64,000 bases of DNA from a phage, in sequence record PZ445448.1; one strand, written 5' to 3'. The number at the start of each line of letters is the position of its first letter. The first letter of the stretch is position 1. The notes beneath the pieces are model-generated. The model made no database searches. It saw only the letters and a list, made by a program, of their open reading frames with translations, and was not told the DNA's origin. Shown here in pieces: positions 2,670 to 59,049 of the stretch. The translations under genes were made by a program, and so were the position numbers.

Positions 2670-5093
2670 ATGAGTATGTGGAATTTTGACTTTGAGGCCT
2701 CAGGTCTTCTGGACGAGGAAGATCTTTACTACCATTGTGGCCTGTTTAAAGAGTTGAATAAAAATAATTTTATGTTGTTTTTGCCTATCAATGATAGATC
2801 TCATTACAGTGAAGAGGAGGTTGAAAAAGCAAAACAATTTATGCTGGCAAAGCAAGATATCTATCCTAGCTGCTCTGTCCGTATTGCGGATTTCAGCCAG
2901 CTTGAATGGTGGTTAACCGGGAACTCCGATTGGTCACCCACATCATTAAGTTGTCACAACTGTTTTAGTTATGACTTTATCTTGATGGAGAAGCTGTCTG
3001 GTATTCATTTTGATATGTTCCGTGATCCCAAGTGTATGGGGACAATCAATAATCATCAGGTGAACCTGTTCGACACTCTGCCAATGAGTCGTATACTATG
3101 GCCCGACAGACCGTTACCTAAAGGATGCCCTGATTCTGTATACAATCCTGTTACAAAACGTATGCAGCAGGTAGGTCCTCATGGCCTAATGGCGTGGGGG
3201 TACGCTTTAGGAAACCAGAAGGTTAAAATTGATGACTGGAGAAATTTACCTCTGTGGAAGTATGTTGATCGTGTATTCGAGGACGTTATCATCCAGGAGC
3301 TGCTCTGGAAAGAGCTGGTAGCGGAATCAAAAGGTGTATTCTACGGCAAATCTGACATGCAGAACTTTATGTACGATCCAGCCAAAGAGAAGCCGAAAGG
3401 GTTCAAGAAGATTACCTGGAAGAATGCATTACGCCGAGGCATGCTGCAGCATTTCCTGATGGAGCTGCAGGCTCGACAGGGTGTGTATTTCGACATAGAT
3501 GGGGCTATTGCTTTACGTGACCGCTGCGATGCGTGGATGAAAGAGATCGCTGATCGTGTTGAACCACAACTTCCTTTAAAAGAGTTATCAATGTCTCAGC
3601 GGCCTAAGTTCCCTGAAAAGCCGTTTAACCAGGATGGGACAATCTCCAATAATGGTTGGAAATGGTTAAAAGACAAGCTTGGCTACCCTGTGGACATGAG
3701 TGCTTTAGAATTCAAAGCTCCTCCTAAGCGAGCATTTACCTCCACAGGAGATGTCAGTAAGATGGGGATAAAATGGTGTGAAGAGATGGGCTGTAAAGAC
3801 CCTGATAAGATGGCGGATTTCTTGAGGGGCTATATCAAGGGCACCTCCACACCACAACCTTTACCTAAAGAGCTAATGGATCAGGCAATAAGTGATCTAC
3901 AGCAGAAGCGAATGCCTGACTGCAAGATACCTATGAAAATCAGCAATCAGGACGATATTAAGCGATACCTGATCAGTGCTGGTTGGCTTCCGACAATGTG
4001 GAGAACTAAGGATGTAACTAAAGACAGCAAGAAGAAAGCTCTACCTGATGCAGATGTTGATGCACGAGTGTATGCATATATGGACGAGCTTTTAGAGTCA
4101 GAGTATTGTGACCTAATTATCAACTTCTGGAACAAAACTGATGCTAAGTTCCAGACAACCGTGCACAAGTTCCGAAGCTTTCCTAACTCCGAAAGGATTA
4201 AAAAGGAAGTATTCGGGAAAATACGTAGAAAAGCTAGGGCACTTATTACTTCTCCGCAACTGAAAGATACGTTTGGACACCTATGCCCGAATCTTGAAAA
4301 ATTGAACGGAGAGATGGCTAAAGATATCGTCTTGTGGTTATCATTGCGAAACCGCAGATCGGTCCTTGATCCAATCAAGGAGGATAAGGTTGATACTGGT
4401 CTTCTTAATCACCCACGTTTGAAGATTGACCATAAGCTTCCTGCTAAAAGTTCTGGATTAACAAACACTTCCCGACAGAAACATAGTATTTGTGCAAACA
4501 TGCCTAAACCATCTCCTAAAGTGGTTATGGGTAAAGAGATGCGTAGTCTGTGGGGTGTTCCTCCAGGATACTTTGAGATCGGTATTGACGGGTCCAACTT
4601 AGAGCAGCTTATCGGGGCTTGGGGTGCCTTTGAGTTCGACAACGGCCTGTATTACGATGTTGTAAGTAACGGGGACGCACACCAAAACAATGCTGAGGCA
4701 TATACAAAAGTAGCAGGTAGAGAGGTGTCTCGTAACGACGGTAAACCTATCACGTATGGGGTTATGTATGGGGCACAAAAAGATAAAGTTGCAGATATGC
4801 TGGACATCTCTCCAGAGTTGGGACAAAGGGTAATCGATGCACTCTGGGATGCCAACCCTGGTCTTAAGGGGCGTAAAGAAGATCTGGAGAAATTCTGGGA
4901 AGCAACGGGTAAGAAGTTTATCTACTCTTTTGATGGTCATGCTATCTGGACCCGATCTAAACACTCTTTACTTAATGCATACCAACAAAATGGCGGCGCA
5001 TCGTTGTGTGACTTAGTTGGGATACTCATGCACCATCAAATGGTGAAGCGTGGGTGGTACGATGAAGGTGTTCGTCGTATTATCTATTACCAT
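2670..5093 (+). CDS. DNA polymerase, family A, exon 1 (3'-5' exo + polymerase motifs, ends before motif C)
   Basis: N-terminal FDFEASGL (DnaQ-like Exo I); motif B-like KPITYGVMYGAQ; ORF stops one codon after ...RRIIYYH; SD aaggag upstream. Confidence 0.8.
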
Positions 5094-5935
5094 AAATAAC
5101 ATTGTGGCTTCGTGCAGTGATGCACGTCGAAAACCTCTTTAATTGACGGGAAGGCTAAGTTGACTTTTACACCTAAACATGGTAAAAGCTCAATATGCTA
5201 ATCCGCAGCGAAGACTAAAGGGGTGTAGTTAAAATGGCTAGATCAGTTGAGTATCACGGATATACCGTGTTTGATGATGGAACAATACCTTTATCGAAAC
5301 GTGATCATACAACAATGTTTTGTTTTGATAATGGTCGAGGTTACCTTTGCGTAACCATGTTCATCGAGGGGAAGCAGTGCACAAAAGGTGTCCACCACTT
5401 GGTTGCTGAATGCTTTGTATCAAACCCTGATCCTGAAAGGCTCACATGGGTGAACCATAAGGACGGAAACAAATACAACAATGCATACTGGAACCTTGAA
5501 TGGACCACCCCTGGTGGAAATATCAAACACGCTTATGATAATGACCTCAGAGTAAGGCCAGTCGGTGAGTATAATGCCAACGCTGTACTGACCGAGGATG
5601 AGGTAACGGAGATTTGCGAACTGTTACAAAGTGGTTTACGACAATGCGAGATTAGGGATCTTGGGTATCCTTATGAGACGGTCAGAGCCATAAAGCAAAG
5701 AAGACAGTGGAAACATATCTCTAAAAACTACACCTGGTAGTAACGTTCAGAGACTATCGAAAGCATAGCGCCAACATAAATTGGTGCGAAGAAGCGAGTA
5801 GAGTAGACCAGCAAGTGCGGTCGAAATGGGAGGTGCCTTGGTAACAAGGTAGTGAGATAGTCCGATCCATACAGGAAACTGTATGGCTGTGCACGTAATG
5901 GTGCGGGGTAGCTTAACGACCTACCTGAACTATTG
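5094..5935 (+). mobile_element. putative group I intron with HNH homing endonuclease ORF, inserted at polymerase motif C
   Basis: Exon ends in U (5093), insert ends in G (5935); GACUA and UAGUC strings in 3' part; flanking ORFs rejoin in frame as YYH|DEYQ. Confidence 0.6.
5234..5740 (+). CDS. HNH homing endonuclease
   Basis: HHLVAECF...VNHKDGNKYNNAYWNLEW HNH motif; lies inside the insert splitting the polymerase gene. Confidence 0.75.
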   Translation: MARSVEYHGYTVFDDGTIPLSKRDHTTMFCFDNGRGYLCVTMFIEGKQCTKGVHHLVAECFVSNPDPERLTWVNHKDGNKYNNAYWNLEWTTPGGNIKHAYDNDLRVRPVGEYNANAVLTEDEVTEICELLQSGLRQCEIRDLGYPYETVRAIKQRRQWKHISKNYTW

Positions 5936-13717: not shown

Positions 13718-13907
13718 GCTTAAATCTGCATGGAACATCGCTGTGGGGGACGAGATCCGTATCCCAGGTGGAAAGACCATTATGAAGATATCTCGTATTG
13801 AGTACGAAGGTGACCGTGTATTCCACATCTTCGCAGAAGATGGTCGAGAAATTTATATACAGGCAGGTTCTCACATTTATATCCGTAAGAAAGGGGACGA
13901 CAAATGA
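13704..13907 (+). CDS. hypothetical protein
   Basis: 67-aa ORF; SD aaggaggg. Confidence 0.45.
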   Translation: MQMFKLKSAWNIAVGDEIRIPGGKTIMKISRIEYEGDRVFHIFAEDGREIYIQAGSHIYIRKKGDDK

Positions 13908-14233
13908 CAGAGATCATCATTTCAACTGCAGGGTATGTGTTCCTGACAATCATTGCACTGACTATTTTGGTGACAGTGTATGGGTTTGTTATCCTTCCTA
14001 TCCTTGAGACATTTAGTTTGTGTCGGTGTTGGAGAAAAGCTTACGGTCCACAACCATGGAAGGACTGGCCCCACCTGGTGCGCTTAGCGTTCTCTTATGC
14101 TTACGATCACTCCAGTAGTGCATGCATAACCGGATACCACGCCCACAACTGGAGCTGGGAAGGATTGAGGAAATGGAATGTTACAAAGACCATACCTCTA
14201 CGCATGTACAAACCTAAAAACAAAGACAGCTGA
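13904..14233 (+). CDS. membrane protein
   Basis: N-terminal hydrophobic stretch IISTAGYVFLTIIALTILVTVYGFVILPIL. Confidence 0.45.
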   Translation: MTEIIISTAGYVFLTIIALTILVTVYGFVILPILETFSLCRCWRKAYGPQPWKDWPHLVRLAFSYAYDHSSSACITGYHAHNWSWEGLRKWNVTKTIPLRMYKPKNKDS

Positions 14234-14269
14234 TACTTGAAAATTCCTGGCATATCAAGTGTAAGGGGG

Positions 14270-14730
14270 ATTTCTAAAATGGATTTCCTCCTTTTGATAT
14301 TTCACCGGGCTGGATATTTTAAAATTCTTAGAAAATCAGAAAATGGATCGAAAACTAAAATGGATTTTTCAGAGTAGGCGCGACAAGCTGAATAACTCAT
14401 CCTATCGTTTGCACCATATTCCAGGCCACCATTATAGATTTCCCACACATGCTAACCTCCCTCTACTAGAACTTCCTCCACTTGCCCTTAACCTTCTATG
14501 GTAACAATCTAACCACTATCTTGAAGTTGCGGTGCAGCTTTCCAAGTACTCGATCTACTTTTCATTTCATGGCTTGGATTTTCTGAAAATTTTTCTCGAT
14601 AAATTTCTCAGTACTCGATCTGTTTTTCGTTTTCTGAATCGGATTTTCTGGAAATCGTTCCGGATCTCGACCTGAAATTTTTGGGGACGAAATCGATTTT
14701 TCGTTTTCAGAAATGGATTTTTAAAATTTC
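14270..14730. repeat. iteron-like direct repeats in AT-rich noncoding region
   Basis: Repeated AAAATGGATTT and two ~50-bp copies AGTACTCGATCT..GGATTTTCTG(A/G)AAAT. Confidence 0.5.
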
Positions 14731-14868
14731 TATATGGGAATATTTTATGGGATACTGTTTTATAGGAAATTGTTACGGAGGGTAATTAGCATGCTAATTA
14801 AATTTATTAAATGCGAGGAGTTCTCATTTAGAATTTTGAATGATAATCATTCTCGTTTGCAGAATAAC

Positions 14869-14914
14869 GGGCAGGCCCGGTGATTGTCTCCCCCGTCACC
14901 GGTGCCTGCCGTCC
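14869..14914 (+). repeat. long palindromic hairpin; inverted-repeat copy A
   Basis: gggcaggcccggtga..tcaccggtgcctgcc; reverse complement of 14870-14894 matches 24494-24518 at 24/25. Confidence 0.6.
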
Positions 14915-15374
14915 TTTCGATAGGTATATTGTGCCACCTGGCGGGGCCGCTGTCAACACTTTTCAAAAAATTTTTCTAACCTGATGCGCTAACCGCTGCA
15001 ACCTGGCGGGGCCAGCCTGGCAGGACCTAACTGACCAGGTAGGAGAGAATGAAGGCTTGTAAACCTGGTGGGCCTATGCTATAGGACAGGTAACAATTGA
15101 AGAGGAGGTACAAAAATGAAAGGTAATGTGATCCCCTGGAAAATGTAGCTATTAATGACGCTGAGGCTATCGCCCTGGTTGAAAAGGCCATGGCGGGAGC
15201 GTTGGAACATAAAGAAGAGTACGAAAAAATGATGGTTAACCTGGTAGGGCGGCGGCAGGTGGATTCTATCATAAAAAATAATTTAAAATAATTGTTGACA
15301 ACCGGGGGAGTCCTGCTATTCTTACCCTACAAGGTGAACAACACCGCACTAACTAGTAAAGAGGATAAAAAATC

Positions 15375-15572
15375 ATGAACGCATACGGAATCAAAGTACG
15401 TCGCAACACTCGCCAGGTGGTCACCGATCAAGTGGTTTGCCTGGTGGATGTAACCATCAACAACGGGCAAGGCCTTTATAAATTTCGTCGCGGTCATAGC
15501 TATACCCTGCAACAGCTTAATCGTTGCGCCCTGACAAAAGGTCAGATCAATCACTGGTTTAATAAAAAATAA
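15375..15572 (+). CDS. hypothetical protein
   Basis: 65 aa; SD agaggataa; weak TTGACA promoter ~15295. Confidence 0.5.
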   Translation: MNAYGIKVRRNTRQVVTDQVVCLVDVTINNGQGLYKFRRGHSYTLQQLNRCALTKGQINHWFNKK

Positions 15573-15575
15573 GTA

Positions 15576-15604
15576 TTGACATACGCCCCGACACAAAATA
15601 TACT
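15576..15604 (+). promoter_or_regulatory. sigma70 promoter
   Basis: TTGACA-17 bp-TATACT. Confidence 0.6.
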
Positions 15605-15636
15605 GAAATCACAAAAGACACTAAGAGGATAAAATC

Positions 15637-16035
15637 ATGAAAACCACAACCTTTAATTTTGACAATGCCGACTTCTCTTTTTCTGATGTCAAGAACTGCC
15701 GCCGTGATCGTGGATTTTACAAGGCTTATAATCTGGTTGGCCTGGACGATGATAATAATTTGCACGAAGTAGCGGAGATCCGGTACTATGCCGCCGCCAG
15801 CGGTAACACTAACTACTGCGTTTTTTGGATACACGACAACAAGAACAATAAGTACGGTTATACTGGCGGCAAGGCGAGCGGTCACGGTTATGATAAAGCT
15901 AACGCAGCACTTGAGAGCGCATTAAATGCTATGGGGATCACTGCCAACGGCTGGATCTATGAAGAAGAGTTTTTGTCAGCACTTGCTGCCCACCTGGGGT
16001 ATAAAAAGCACATTGTGACATGCGCCCACGAATAA
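15637..16035 (+). CDS. hypothetical protein
   Basis: 132 aa; SD agaggataaaatc. Confidence 0.55.
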   Translation: MKTTTFNFDNADFSFSDVKNCRRDRGFYKAYNLVGLDDDNNLHEVAEIRYYAAASGNTNYCVFWIHDNKNNKYGYTGGKASGHGYDKANAALESALNAMGITANGWIYEEEFLSALAAHLGYKKHIVTCAHE

Positions 16036-16050
16036 AAAAAAAAAAAATTA

Positions 16051-25839: not shown

Positions 25840-28310
25840 TCCTCCTACCACAAACGGCCCAGCCTGGCAAGTGGAATAATTGACTAGCCATCAATCCCAC
25901 ACACTGTACAAATATACATGGAAAATAACTATTGCATAATTTTTCATTGTGTGGTAGCAGGTCCATTTTTACCCGTTTTCTCTCTCAAAATTGCACGTAA
26001 TGCCGCTATTGCACAAAATTTAACCTGATGCACATCTTCAATATCTTGTCAACAACTAAAAATCTTTATAAGTCATACACTTACACACTCACAAAAGCGT
26101 GTTCTACGTGAAAAATCGAGTATAACTATAGCCGCCAGATCTCAGAATTTACGTACGCTCACCATTCTATAGTCTGCTAAGTATTTATTCCAACCATGGA
26201 ATAACGGAATAGTCAATACCTGCATAAAATAATTATTCGTGTAAACTGCATAACATAAATCAGCTCAGGTGTCAACATTTTTCGTAAACAGTCCGAAATT
26301 GTCACGGTGAGTTATCATAAACAGAGAAATATTTAGTCGTCTAATGTTTACTGTACATTACTATACTGACTGGAATCATTAGATGACTAAGAGAAAGATA
26401 AGAAATAATTAACAATACAATTATTTTATCTGTAACAATAAGGCAACTATGCAAACGAATGGCATGGCGCGACGGAGTCGCGACATAATATAAAAGCAGT
26501 AACCATCACCCCCGTGATAGTTTGTCTGCAAACTATTAATCAGATCATAGTTGCCTTGTATTTAGTTAATCATGACATAACAAGCAAGGCAACTATAGAT
26601 CTTCTAATAGTTGCCCTGCTTTTATATTATGTCATAGAAACACCCGAAGGGGTGACCAAAGGTCACCTGGCATGGCCAGTGAAAGATTATTAACTTGTTA
26701 ATTGTTAACTTGCTAATTGTTTTCATGCAAACGAATGTCATGGCTTATCCTATCTGTGTAAACAGTCAAGGTGTAAACTATCCAGGCGTAAACAATCTAT
26801 ACGTGAACAGTGAAACATGAAATAATAACAGTCGTTATTGTGTCGAAAGTGTATAAGGTGTCATAGTATGTCAGACAAGTTTTTCTCCTCTTTGTCAAGT
26901 GCTGCATGAAAAATTTACAAGCTTGTATGGTAGCATTTTTGCTGCCCTGTTTACATTCAGTTGTGTATGTATAACCCTTGTTGTGTGGGCGTTTAGACGT
27001 CTAGACGGTTGGAAGTCCGCAGGTTAATATCTAATCTATTGGCTGCTAACTATATCCCACACAAATAGTAAGAAATATAATTGTTATGTGCGTAAACAGT
27101 AACTCATGTTATCAATCCCTGTATGTATCGCCAGTGGTGCGCATAATGGGTATTATGTTAAATTGCCCGTAATGATAACTATTCTCACAATGATAGGTAT
27201 TCTCATTCACTCCCACAAGATAGGTTGCAAATGTTGTGCCACTGTGTGAACGGCCTCACCTATTAATTTGCCTCACTGCCTCGATATTTGAGAATTGTTA
27301 TAAGAATGAGAAGTATTCCCATTTCGTCCGCCTGGCAGCACTCCAGTCGCTACCGCTCATGACAGGGCAGAACTAGACCCTCTTCAGATATTTCTGGCTG
27401 ACTCTTCAGGCCTGTGTGGGAAAAGCCAACCTCTCCGGCGGCGGGGAGGGGTTTGTCAGGAAAATTGCAGGTCAATTAAAAAATTTACGTGGTATATGAA
27501 GCGCTCTTCAGGTAAGGCATGTATTATGGGATGAAACCCTCTTCAGGCAATGATATTTGTGGGTGTGATATTTGCTGGAAAGCCAGATATGACGGGACTC
27601 CCGGCGGGGCAGGGGTAGTACAGACAGGGGAAATATGGAGGATGTAGTTGGGGGAGTTGATCAAACAGGTAGAGTATGGAATATGTTACAAGTATGTTAA
27701 ATATGGAGGGTGGATATCTGTAGGATTTATGTGTAAAATCAAAGACTTAAGTGGTGTTGTGGTATTTTCTATAAATAATTCAAGTTTAATAGGTAATATT
27801 TGTCTCTATCCGCTTTGTGTGGTAAACAAATTCAGATGGTGTTGGTTTACAAGTGTATACATAATATACAAATTAAAGATACAAGAAACCCCCCTCCCCC
27901 TTCGGCTACCATTCACCTTTTCCTCTGACTGGTACTTAAACACTTATTCAGACTCTTCAGGTTATCACCCATATATCATATGGCAGTGACTGGTGTCCTC
28001 CGGCCCCTCTTTCGTCACCCGTCCGCTTCGCCATGCTAATGCCATAGCCAATGGTTCGGTTGTTCACCCTGTTCACTCAGGTGTATCTCCATACCCCTTC
28101 AAACCGAAGAGAACAGAAAACCCGAATTACTCGGTAAAAGAAAAGAGAAGAACTTAATTTTATCAGGATAGGCAAGAATGTCAAGGCATGACTGCTCACT
28201 AAACAAGCAAACAGTCATGTGTGGGAGGTAAGTGATTGTGGTGGTAGGAAATTTAGTTGAAAGATGTGTTATAGGTGCTCCCAGCACTTTAGCCGGGTAG
28301 CTAATTGTGT
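25840..28310. repeat. 2.5-kb repeat-rich noncoding convergent intergenic region
   Basis: No convincing ORF; GGCAACTAT/ATAGTTGCC inverted repeats, GGTGACCaaaGGTCACC palindrome, GTAAAC clusters, CTCTTCAGG x5-6, G-rich motifs. Confidence 0.6.
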
Positions 28311-58748: not shown

Positions 58749-59049
58749 AGACCCTCCTGTTAGTTATTCTGCAAGATGGTTGGATGCTGTAATGGAAGGC
58801 ATCATCACTCTCTGCAATAAGTGACTCAACATCCCAATACTTTTCAAAAAGGAACGGATTAGACCCCCAGTGGTGGGTTATTTTCATCAAGGAGTCTGGT
58901 ATCATATAACCACAGATCTTAATTACATCGCCAGGTTGAATTGTGTTTTCATGAAGGTTGCTTGCCTTCTTCAGAATCATACCTTTATGATTCTCGTTTG
59001 CATACAACTGGACAATATCTTTATCTTCAACAATAAAAATTTTAAGCAT
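58741..59049 (-). CDS. hypothetical protein
   Basis: 102 aa; minus promoter TTGACA-18-TATTAT ~59083-59112. Confidence 0.45.
   Translation of the reverse strand: MLKIFIVEDKDIVQLYANENHKGMILKKASNLHENTIQPGDVIKICGYMIPDSLMKITHHWGSNPFLFEKYWDVESLIAESDDAFHYSIQPSCRITNRRVFE

Follow-up and report, generated by a model that had tools for sequence, protein, structure and literature searches.

A three-unit direct-repeat array conserved across the Vequintavirinae: a candidate replication origin or control region of rV5-like phages

Three spaced direct copies of a ~38-bp core, at positions 14546-14582, 14611-14647 and 14685-14721 (65 and 74 bp apart), form an array in the early region of an rV5-like phage of E. 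coli. The array is subfamily-wide, is previously undescribed in the literature searched and is a candidate origin or control region. It is the best-conserved non-coding element of the early region. Its sequence properties suggest that it is most likely a cis-acting site bound by protein at the DNA level, because it is non-coding, forms no stable RNA, is single-copy in the window (the whole 64-kb stretch of DNA that was analysed) and is absent from host chromosomes. The function of the site is assigned with more caution. A role as replication origin, or as the control region of one, is given a probability of roughly 0.38, and the choice of replication initiation over transcription control as the outcome of binding is speculative. 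The first-pass annotation of this DNA had proposed a 'possible origin or binding array'. The binding array is borne out by conservation, by the non-coding character of the repeats and by their fixed span, while the origin is neither supported nor refuted.

The phage belongs to the genus Vequintavirus, and the region is 98% identical to that of the Escherichia phages MaxTheCat, FFH2 and APECc02 and of more than 100 further rV5-like myoviruses (Vequintavirus, ~136 kb). The array sits in a gene-free gap of ~880 bp (14234-15116). The stop of a membrane-type ORF of 109 amino acids (13904-14233, plus strand) is the left border of the gap, and a small plus-strand ORF that starts at 15117 is the right border. 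All genes around the gap are plus-strand genes of the early region, small and of unknown function. A primase-helicase (DnaB-type, the replisome being T7-type) lies at 529-2607 and a family-A DNA polymerase (DNA polymerase A) at 2670-5099. The gap had been described as lying between the replication genes and a small-gene cassette, which is only loosely true, as the replication genes are located 9-14 kb upstream with many small genes in between. In the public records of relatives the array is unannotated or overlaid with inconsistent small ORFs, which differ from record to record. At the right border, the ~60-aa plus-strand ORF of relatives (for example bas57_0100 of MaxTheCat; 15117-15300 here) carries a 1-nt deletion in the present phage (GATCCCCTGG versus GATCCCCCTGG), and its 3' end also diverges from the relatives' version; it is possible that this ORF is a pseudogene or reflects a sequencing error.

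The three units are 74-76% identical to one another over 47 nt, and all lie on the plus strand. Unit 1 has the core GTACTCGATCTACTTTTCATTTCATGGCTTGGATTTT (14546-14582) and a homologous unit 1 in six genera, unit 2 has the core GTACTCGATCTGTTTTTCGTTTTCTGAATCGGATTTT (14611-14647), and unit 3 has the core GGACGAAATCGATTTTTCGTTTTCAGAAATGGATTTT (14685-14721) with a degenerate head and was aligned with unit 3 of the other genera. The unit head GTACTCGATCT occurs exactly twice in the 64-kb window, at 14546 and 14611, 65 bp apart. When 38-mers are compared with the sequence itself at lags of 55-85 bp, the best pair agrees at 30/38 positions, and dinucleotide shuffles (n=500) reach at most 26/38. Repeats of this quality are far outside what chance would give, and their conservation across genera removes any doubt that they are real. 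Tandem Repeats Finder did not report the units because they are spaced repeats and not head-to-tail ones. No further copies of the core motifs were found anywhere in the window. Two tandem units of ~50 bp had been described initially. Both heads are where they had been placed, but the count has to be raised to three, the conserved core is ~38 bp and not ~50 bp, and the copies are spaced. The recurrence of a short motif was also noted correctly, with copies of the AAAATGGATTT type at 14276-14287, 14340-14349 (AAAATGGATC), 14357-14368 and 14710-14721. With at most one mismatch, the AAATGGATTTT-type motif has eight matches in the window, half of them inside these 450 bp. The short motif AAAATGGATTTT (AAAAT-GG-ATTTT) is itself near-palindromic.

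Conservation in related phages had been named as a check on the repeats, and the repeats are present in six genera. Within the genus, 11 divergent Vequintavirus members with identities down to 83% were aligned, and the block that contains the three units (14546-14730) is nearly invariant among them. Other genera were located by using a widely conserved downstream element as an anchor. The loci compared came from the Seunavirus members PVP-SE1, GAP31, LNA4 and 4MG, the Mydovirus members Ro1, KNP2 and BIS47, the Avunavirus Av-05, the Henunavirus members pEp_SNUABM_01 and Hena1, and, for Certrevirus, P7_Pc and an uncultivated contig. The same layout is found at the same position in all six genera (Vequinta-, Seuna-, Mydo-, Avuna-, Henuna- and Certrevirus). 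It consists of two or three short AAAT(G/C)G(T/A)TTT motifs, a spacer of ~175-190 bp, exactly three units with the consensus core GGTaCTCGATCgnnTTTTCa.ttTc.aaAtCGtATTT, and an element TTGAATGA(T/G)AATCATTCTC located 112-155 bp beyond unit 3. Unit spacing is 65/74 bp in Vequintavirus, 74-76/67 bp in Seuna-, Mydo- and Avunavirus, 78/63 bp in Certrevirus, and 74/72 and 76/70 bp in Henunavirus. Despite these differing single spacings, units 1 and 3 are always 139-146 bp apart. In Seuna- and Mydovirus the module is bordered by genes that lack a homologue in the 64-kb window; thus the non-coding module is better conserved than its neighbours, which are not shared between genera. Units at the same position in different genera are only marginally more alike than units at different positions (identity 0.67 versus 0.64; 104/5000 permutations), and no inference is drawn from this difference.

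Several other kinds of element were considered and set aside. A coding function is contradicted by stops in every frame of the window, by the lack of any frame open in all lineages and by spacer indels that are not multiples of three. A motif dispersed among promoters or operators does not fit, since the motifs are unique to the locus in 64 kb and a sigma-70 consensus scan gave no match within the units. A CRISPR-like array is ruled out because the repeats are only 74-76% alike and the 'spacers' are conserved among relatives. The array is also not a motif derived from the host: no Enterobacteriaceae chromosome has two unit heads at such a spacing. A search of a genome collection for the two-head pattern gave 31 matches, in arrays from Planctomycetes and other phyla that have no relation to this one, and the single 'plasmid' match is a 137.5-kb record, as long as a Vequintavirus genome. 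Planctomycetes contigs (Thermoguttaceae and Planctomycetales; loci L045, L055, L059 and L060) contain many regularly spaced CTCGATCNNNTTTTC matches, which are probably CRISPR arrays that fit by chance and are unrelated to the phage element.

A role at the RNA level was weighed as well, in which the units would be transcribed and would act as weak tandem terminators, as antitermination sites or as a small RNA. The region of unit 3 in Vequintavirus overlaps a G-U-rich hairpin (14677-14714) that is followed by a T run, and its pairing is kept despite single substitutions in relatives. The unit tails in most genera have the form ATTTTTTC-N8-10-GAAAAAAT and are followed by T runs. However, these tail hairpins are missing in Certrevirus, their loops are shrunk to 1-3 nt in Vequintavirus, and the part that is conserved is the unstructured core. 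The array as a whole folds like its shuffles (z = -0.4 on both strands). Neither the window nor six loci gave an Rfam match, with none at E values up to 1 in the locus, and no tRNA was found. The array of PVP-SE1 gave z = -1.3 on the plus strand and z = -3.1 on the minus strand, the latter being attributed to its inverted repeats. Signals of this kind are therefore an unlikely explanation for the array.

Upstream of the units, a hairpin with the arms AAGGGGGA...TCCTCCTT and a T-rich tail TTTGATATTT was identified at 14263-14301 (plus strand) by folding and alignment. Folding energies of -14 to -17 kcal/mol were obtained for it in four lineages. Changes on both arms preserve the stem (GGGGGA/TCCTCC, GGAGGA/TCCTCC, GAGGGAAAA/TTTTCCCTT and CAGGGGAA/TTCTCCTG), and the compensatory changes are seen in FV3, SYGMH1 and Mangalyan. 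The hairpin thus has what is expected of an intrinsic terminator, that is, a G+C-containing stem, a T run and compensatory changes across four lineages. A consensus terminator scan missed it because its loop is longer than 8 nt. On these grounds it is best read as a putative intrinsic terminator that closes the upstream early operon. The copy of AAAATGGATTT at 14276-14286, which had been counted as the first iteron, falls within this hairpin, in its loop and the upper part of its stem, and is better explained by it.

The hairpin is followed by an AT-rich segment, block A (14313-14371), which was defined by alignment and in which the palindrome GATATTTTAAAATTC occurs together with two copies of AAAATGGAT (14340 and 14357). 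Block A is identical in 11 Vequintaviruses and is unchanged even in SYGMH1, in which the upstream gene is a ClpP-like replacement. In Seuna-, Mydo- and Henunavirus there are two or three analogous short tandem motifs, GAAATGGTTTT, with a period of ~12, at the same relative position. From block A to unit 1 runs a spacer (14372-14545), also defined by alignment, that shows many substitutions among relatives and indels of +1, -2 and -1; it is not coding, because these indels are not multiples of three. The length of the spacer, ~175-190 bp, is kept across genera. It is C-rich on the plus strand in Vequintavirus (GC skew -0.37), which in a transcription-activated origin could help a transcript to stay in place as a primer or R-loop (G-rich RNA on a C-rich template). 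The skew is not kept elsewhere, with values of -0.09 to +0.15 in Seuna- and Mydovirus, and an R-loop-prone spacer would thus be peculiar to Vequintavirus. In the same spacer a motif (T)TATCTCAAA occurs in 1-4 copies, always on the plus strand, in Mydo-, Henuna- and Seunavirus (L015 2107-2225, L030 1014-1135, L031 973-1095 and L014 2122); it was not found in the Vequintavirus, Avunavirus or Certrevirus spacers.

Downstream, unit 3 abuts the most AT-rich 100 bp of the window (14711-14810, 24% G+C, tied), which were found by a composition scan. By reading and without figures, the stretch after unit 3 looks less extreme in the other genera, a point against an origin. Within 14711-14810 there are a 15-bp tandem repeat (14743-14774, 2.1 copies) and a perfect 18-bp palindrome, TAATTAGCATGCTAATTA (14783-14800), which lies ~35 bp upstream of a Fur-like promoter element; the palindrome is largely kept within Vequintavirus and was not seen in the other genera. 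Other extreme AT-rich stretches of the window are located at ~26000-26400, 27680 and 58900-59030. Those at ~26000-26400 and 27680 are near a sign change of the GC skew (~28 kb) and may be a boundary of convergent transcription or a terminal-repeat region as reported for KPP-1. A strong leftward promoter of the sigma-70 type, TTGACA-17-(TGg)CACAAT, is predicted on the minus strand from 14956 to 14928 by a consensus scan (10/12 matches, with a TG extension). It points at the AT-rich stretch, located 120-250 bp downstream of it, and at the array, to which its transcript would be antisense. The promoter is embedded in repeats rich in G+C, ACCTGGCGGGGCC, at 14932 and, 65 bp further on, at 14997, and equivalent minus-strand promoters are found in PVP-SE1, Ro1 and the Certrevirus-like contig L019.

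The reading preferred here, a replication origin or its control region, could work as follows. The three 38-bp cores and the short motifs of block A would form one single-copy cis-acting DNA site, and a sequence-specific protein, probably encoded by the phage, would bind three phased sites over ~140 bp. The bound factor, together with transcription from the conserved leftward promoter, would open the adjacent AT-rich DNA, at which the T7-type primase-helicase and the family-A polymerase would then be loaded. In favour of an origin are the position of the lowest-GC 100 bp (tied) next to unit 3, the conserved predicted promoter that points into the lowest-GC stretch, replisome genes of the T7 type, and the lack of any mapped origin in the group, for which the skew analysis of rV5 found none (PMC3606486). 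Other findings speak against it. Neither the DnaA box TTATNCACA (with at most one mismatch) nor the IHF consensus WATCAANNNNTTR occurs in 13862-16047, and no initiator-like gene was recognised nearby by Pfam or PHROGs. The GC skew at the locus steps from ~+0.13 to ~+0.05 with no change of sign. The 38-bp cores at a spacing of 63-78 bp are unlike classical iterons of 17-22 bp. A-tract phasing is unremarkable, as AA/TT periodicity reaches only the 87th percentile and is inconsistent across genera, and phased, bent A-tract DNA was rejected for this reason. The linkage, at 112-155 bp, to a conserved promoter element that resembles a Fur box fits transcription control equally well. In rV5 coordinates the locus is at about 117 kb. 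The rV5 genome map carries a 'non-coding' box (PMC3606486), which may be the present locus. Our literature search found no transcriptome, origin mapping or description of the array, and there is none in the record annotations that were inspected.

Comparison with known origins gives a mixed result. The array shares with the iteron origins (lambda ori, P1 oriR and the plasmid oriV of pSC101 and RK2) direct, asymmetric repeats in a single-copy, non-coding site, unusually AT-rich DNA adjoining them, conservation among relatives and at least three direct repeats (here three cores, 74-76% identical). However, the repeats of iteron origins are 17-22 bp long and spaced at ~22 bp, whereas the array has only three copies of 38 bp at 63-78 bp. 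Iteron origins also have sites for host factors and an initiator gene in cis, while DnaA sites, IHF sites and an initiator were not found here. A second comparison is with origins that are activated by transcription. The primary origin of T7 consists of promoters followed by AT-rich DNA, and oriF and oriG of T4 combine a middle promoter with an unwinding element. The present locus has in common with these a T7-type replisome encoded upstream and a predicted promoter aimed at the window's lowest-GC stretch (tied). In contrast, the T7 and T4 origins have no repeat array, and the promoter at this locus is of the host sigma-70 type. A further difference is a strong hairpin (14870-14910), which lies between the promoter and the AT-rich DNA and results from a deletion in this phage. 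The deletion itself comprises 135 bp that are found in all listed relatives, with a junction at ~14884. It lies between two copies of CCCGGTG(A/G)TTGTCTCCC, removes a second Fur-like box and joins two halves into the hairpin, which has a folding energy of -32 kcal/mol and z of ~-4.4 on both strands.

The first rival reading is transcription control, according to which the cores and block A would be operator or upstream sites for a phage or host regulator that sets the activity of the promoters at 14836-14865 and/or 14956-14928. It is regarded as possible although somewhat doubtful. Such a site could serve as a timing switch within the early programme or could couple the programme to the iron status of the host. 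The evidence centres on the plus-strand element at 14836-14865, found by consensus match, in which a promoter-like TTGAAT-N18-CAGAAT is combined with a Fur-box-like palindrome (TTGAATGATAATCATTCTC, 15/19). This is the most conserved non-coding stretch across the six genera and is always linked to the array, and the distance between the two is near-constant in all six (112-155 bp from unit 3 to TTGAATGA). The conserved terminator bounds the region upstream, and further palindromes lie nearby (14783-14800 and AAAAT-NN-ATTTT). The box was scored against the Fur consensus GATAATGATAATCATTATC (PMC4506495) with its overlapping hexamer register, and a 64-kb sequence is expected to hold about 0.2 sites that match as well. 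The match is 15/19 in the window, rises to 16/19 in the second copy that relatives have, and is 14/19 in Seuna-, Henuna- and Certrevirus. The element is duplicated in most Vequintaviruses, and in Certrevirus as many as four copies stand in tandem (for example L001 5937 and 6073, and L032 1271-1385). As in Fur-regulated promoters of Enterobacteriaceae, the 19-bp box (14836-14854) has a 13-bp centre, AATGATAATCATT, that is identical to the Fur consensus, and it overlaps the -35 element and the spacer. It departs from the consensus in half of the phage genera, which have GAGAAT in place of GATAAT (14/19). The match suggests iron- or Fur-responsive control in a virulent phage, but the palindrome could be suited equally to a phage protein. 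In Seuna-, Mydo-, Avuna- and Certrevirus the Fur-like element is followed downstream by TCTTTACAAATCTTTACAAAT (TTTAC-N5-TTTAC; L013 2610-2640, L015 2645-2675 and L032 1480-1505), which is absent in Vequintavirus. Read on the opposite strand, TTTAC-N5-TTTAC corresponds to the CpxR box, GTAAA-N5-GTAAA.

Other features of the array are less easily reconciled with transcription control. With 110-290 bp between the sites and the promoter, the distance is large for a simple operator. The cores are direct and asymmetric, while dimeric regulators typically use palindromes. No second promoter in the 64-kb window carries the motif. None of the neighbouring genes could be recognised as encoding a DNA-binding protein; for their ORFs, Pfam and PHROGs gave either no match or families of unknown function. 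The operator triplets OR and OL of lambda are a useful comparison. Like the array, they comprise three sites, keep a constant place with respect to a conserved promoter and are surrounded by a terminator and promoters. They are unlike it in that the array consists of direct repeats 65-75 bp apart, is more than 110 bp from the promoter and has a motif that is not reused.

Two further possibilities start from short motifs in the array. The sequence TCGATAAATT at 14596-14605 (plus strand), between units 1 and 2, is an exact match to the high-affinity H-NS motif (PMC2094087) and is its sole exact copy in the 64-kb window. It is invariant in Vequintavirus, and the region around it ranks with the most AT-rich parts of the window. 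It was considered whether H-NS or another nucleoid protein is recruited via TCGATAAATT and then spreads, so that the locus would be a silencing site or a decoy. This is a weak lead, as the other genera have arrays that lack the motif and the unit tails of Certrevirus are G+C-rich. In addition, a generic AT-rich target would not be expected to keep a 38-bp core and a fixed span of three units, and nucleation by H-NS is accordingly considered very unlikely. The second possibility arises from GATC, which is present in each unit head in five genera. The pac site of P1 has direct repeats with GATC sites, and the array might be imagined to be a site for DNA packaging or for recognition of the genome end. 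However, GATC is absent from the heads of Henunavirus (GGGACTYGARRGG) and is not enriched (4 in 700 bp versus 5.7 per kb overall), which also argues against a Dam/SeqA cluster. The genome of Certrevirus CB7 is circularly permuted and without a specific end (PMC7344957), and the 514-bp terminal repeat of Mydovirus KPP-1, at 116,316-116,829 (PMC9862379), lies 8.4 kb from its array (125,256-125,469). A packaging or end-recognition site is thus extremely improbable.

A bolder form of the origin reading is that the array is the origin of the whole Vequintavirinae, with three 38-bp sites that wrap ~140 bp around a phage initiator and are coupled to the Fur-like promoter. This version is thought rather unlikely. 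If it were true, the start of phage DNA synthesis, or an early decision, would follow the iron status of the host. The combination of the array with a promoter that resembles a Fur box would make sensing of host iron by a virulent phage testable, and EdH4 is a relative that can be edited with Cas13a selection (PMC9712115). rV5-like phages are widely used in biocontrol and therapy against E. coli O157, Salmonella, Klebsiella and Cronobacter. Once the role of the array is known, it could serve as a cis-element for engineering, for example in origin-based vectors or in the choice of safe sites for insertion and deletion, and spurious ORFs could be removed from more than 100 records. Among the public records, 16 'Campylobacter phage' entries in the range GenBank MG065635-MG065690, with Campylobacter jejuni given as host, are 94-98% identical to rV5-like coliphages at this locus, and the name or the host attribution of these records looks doubtful.
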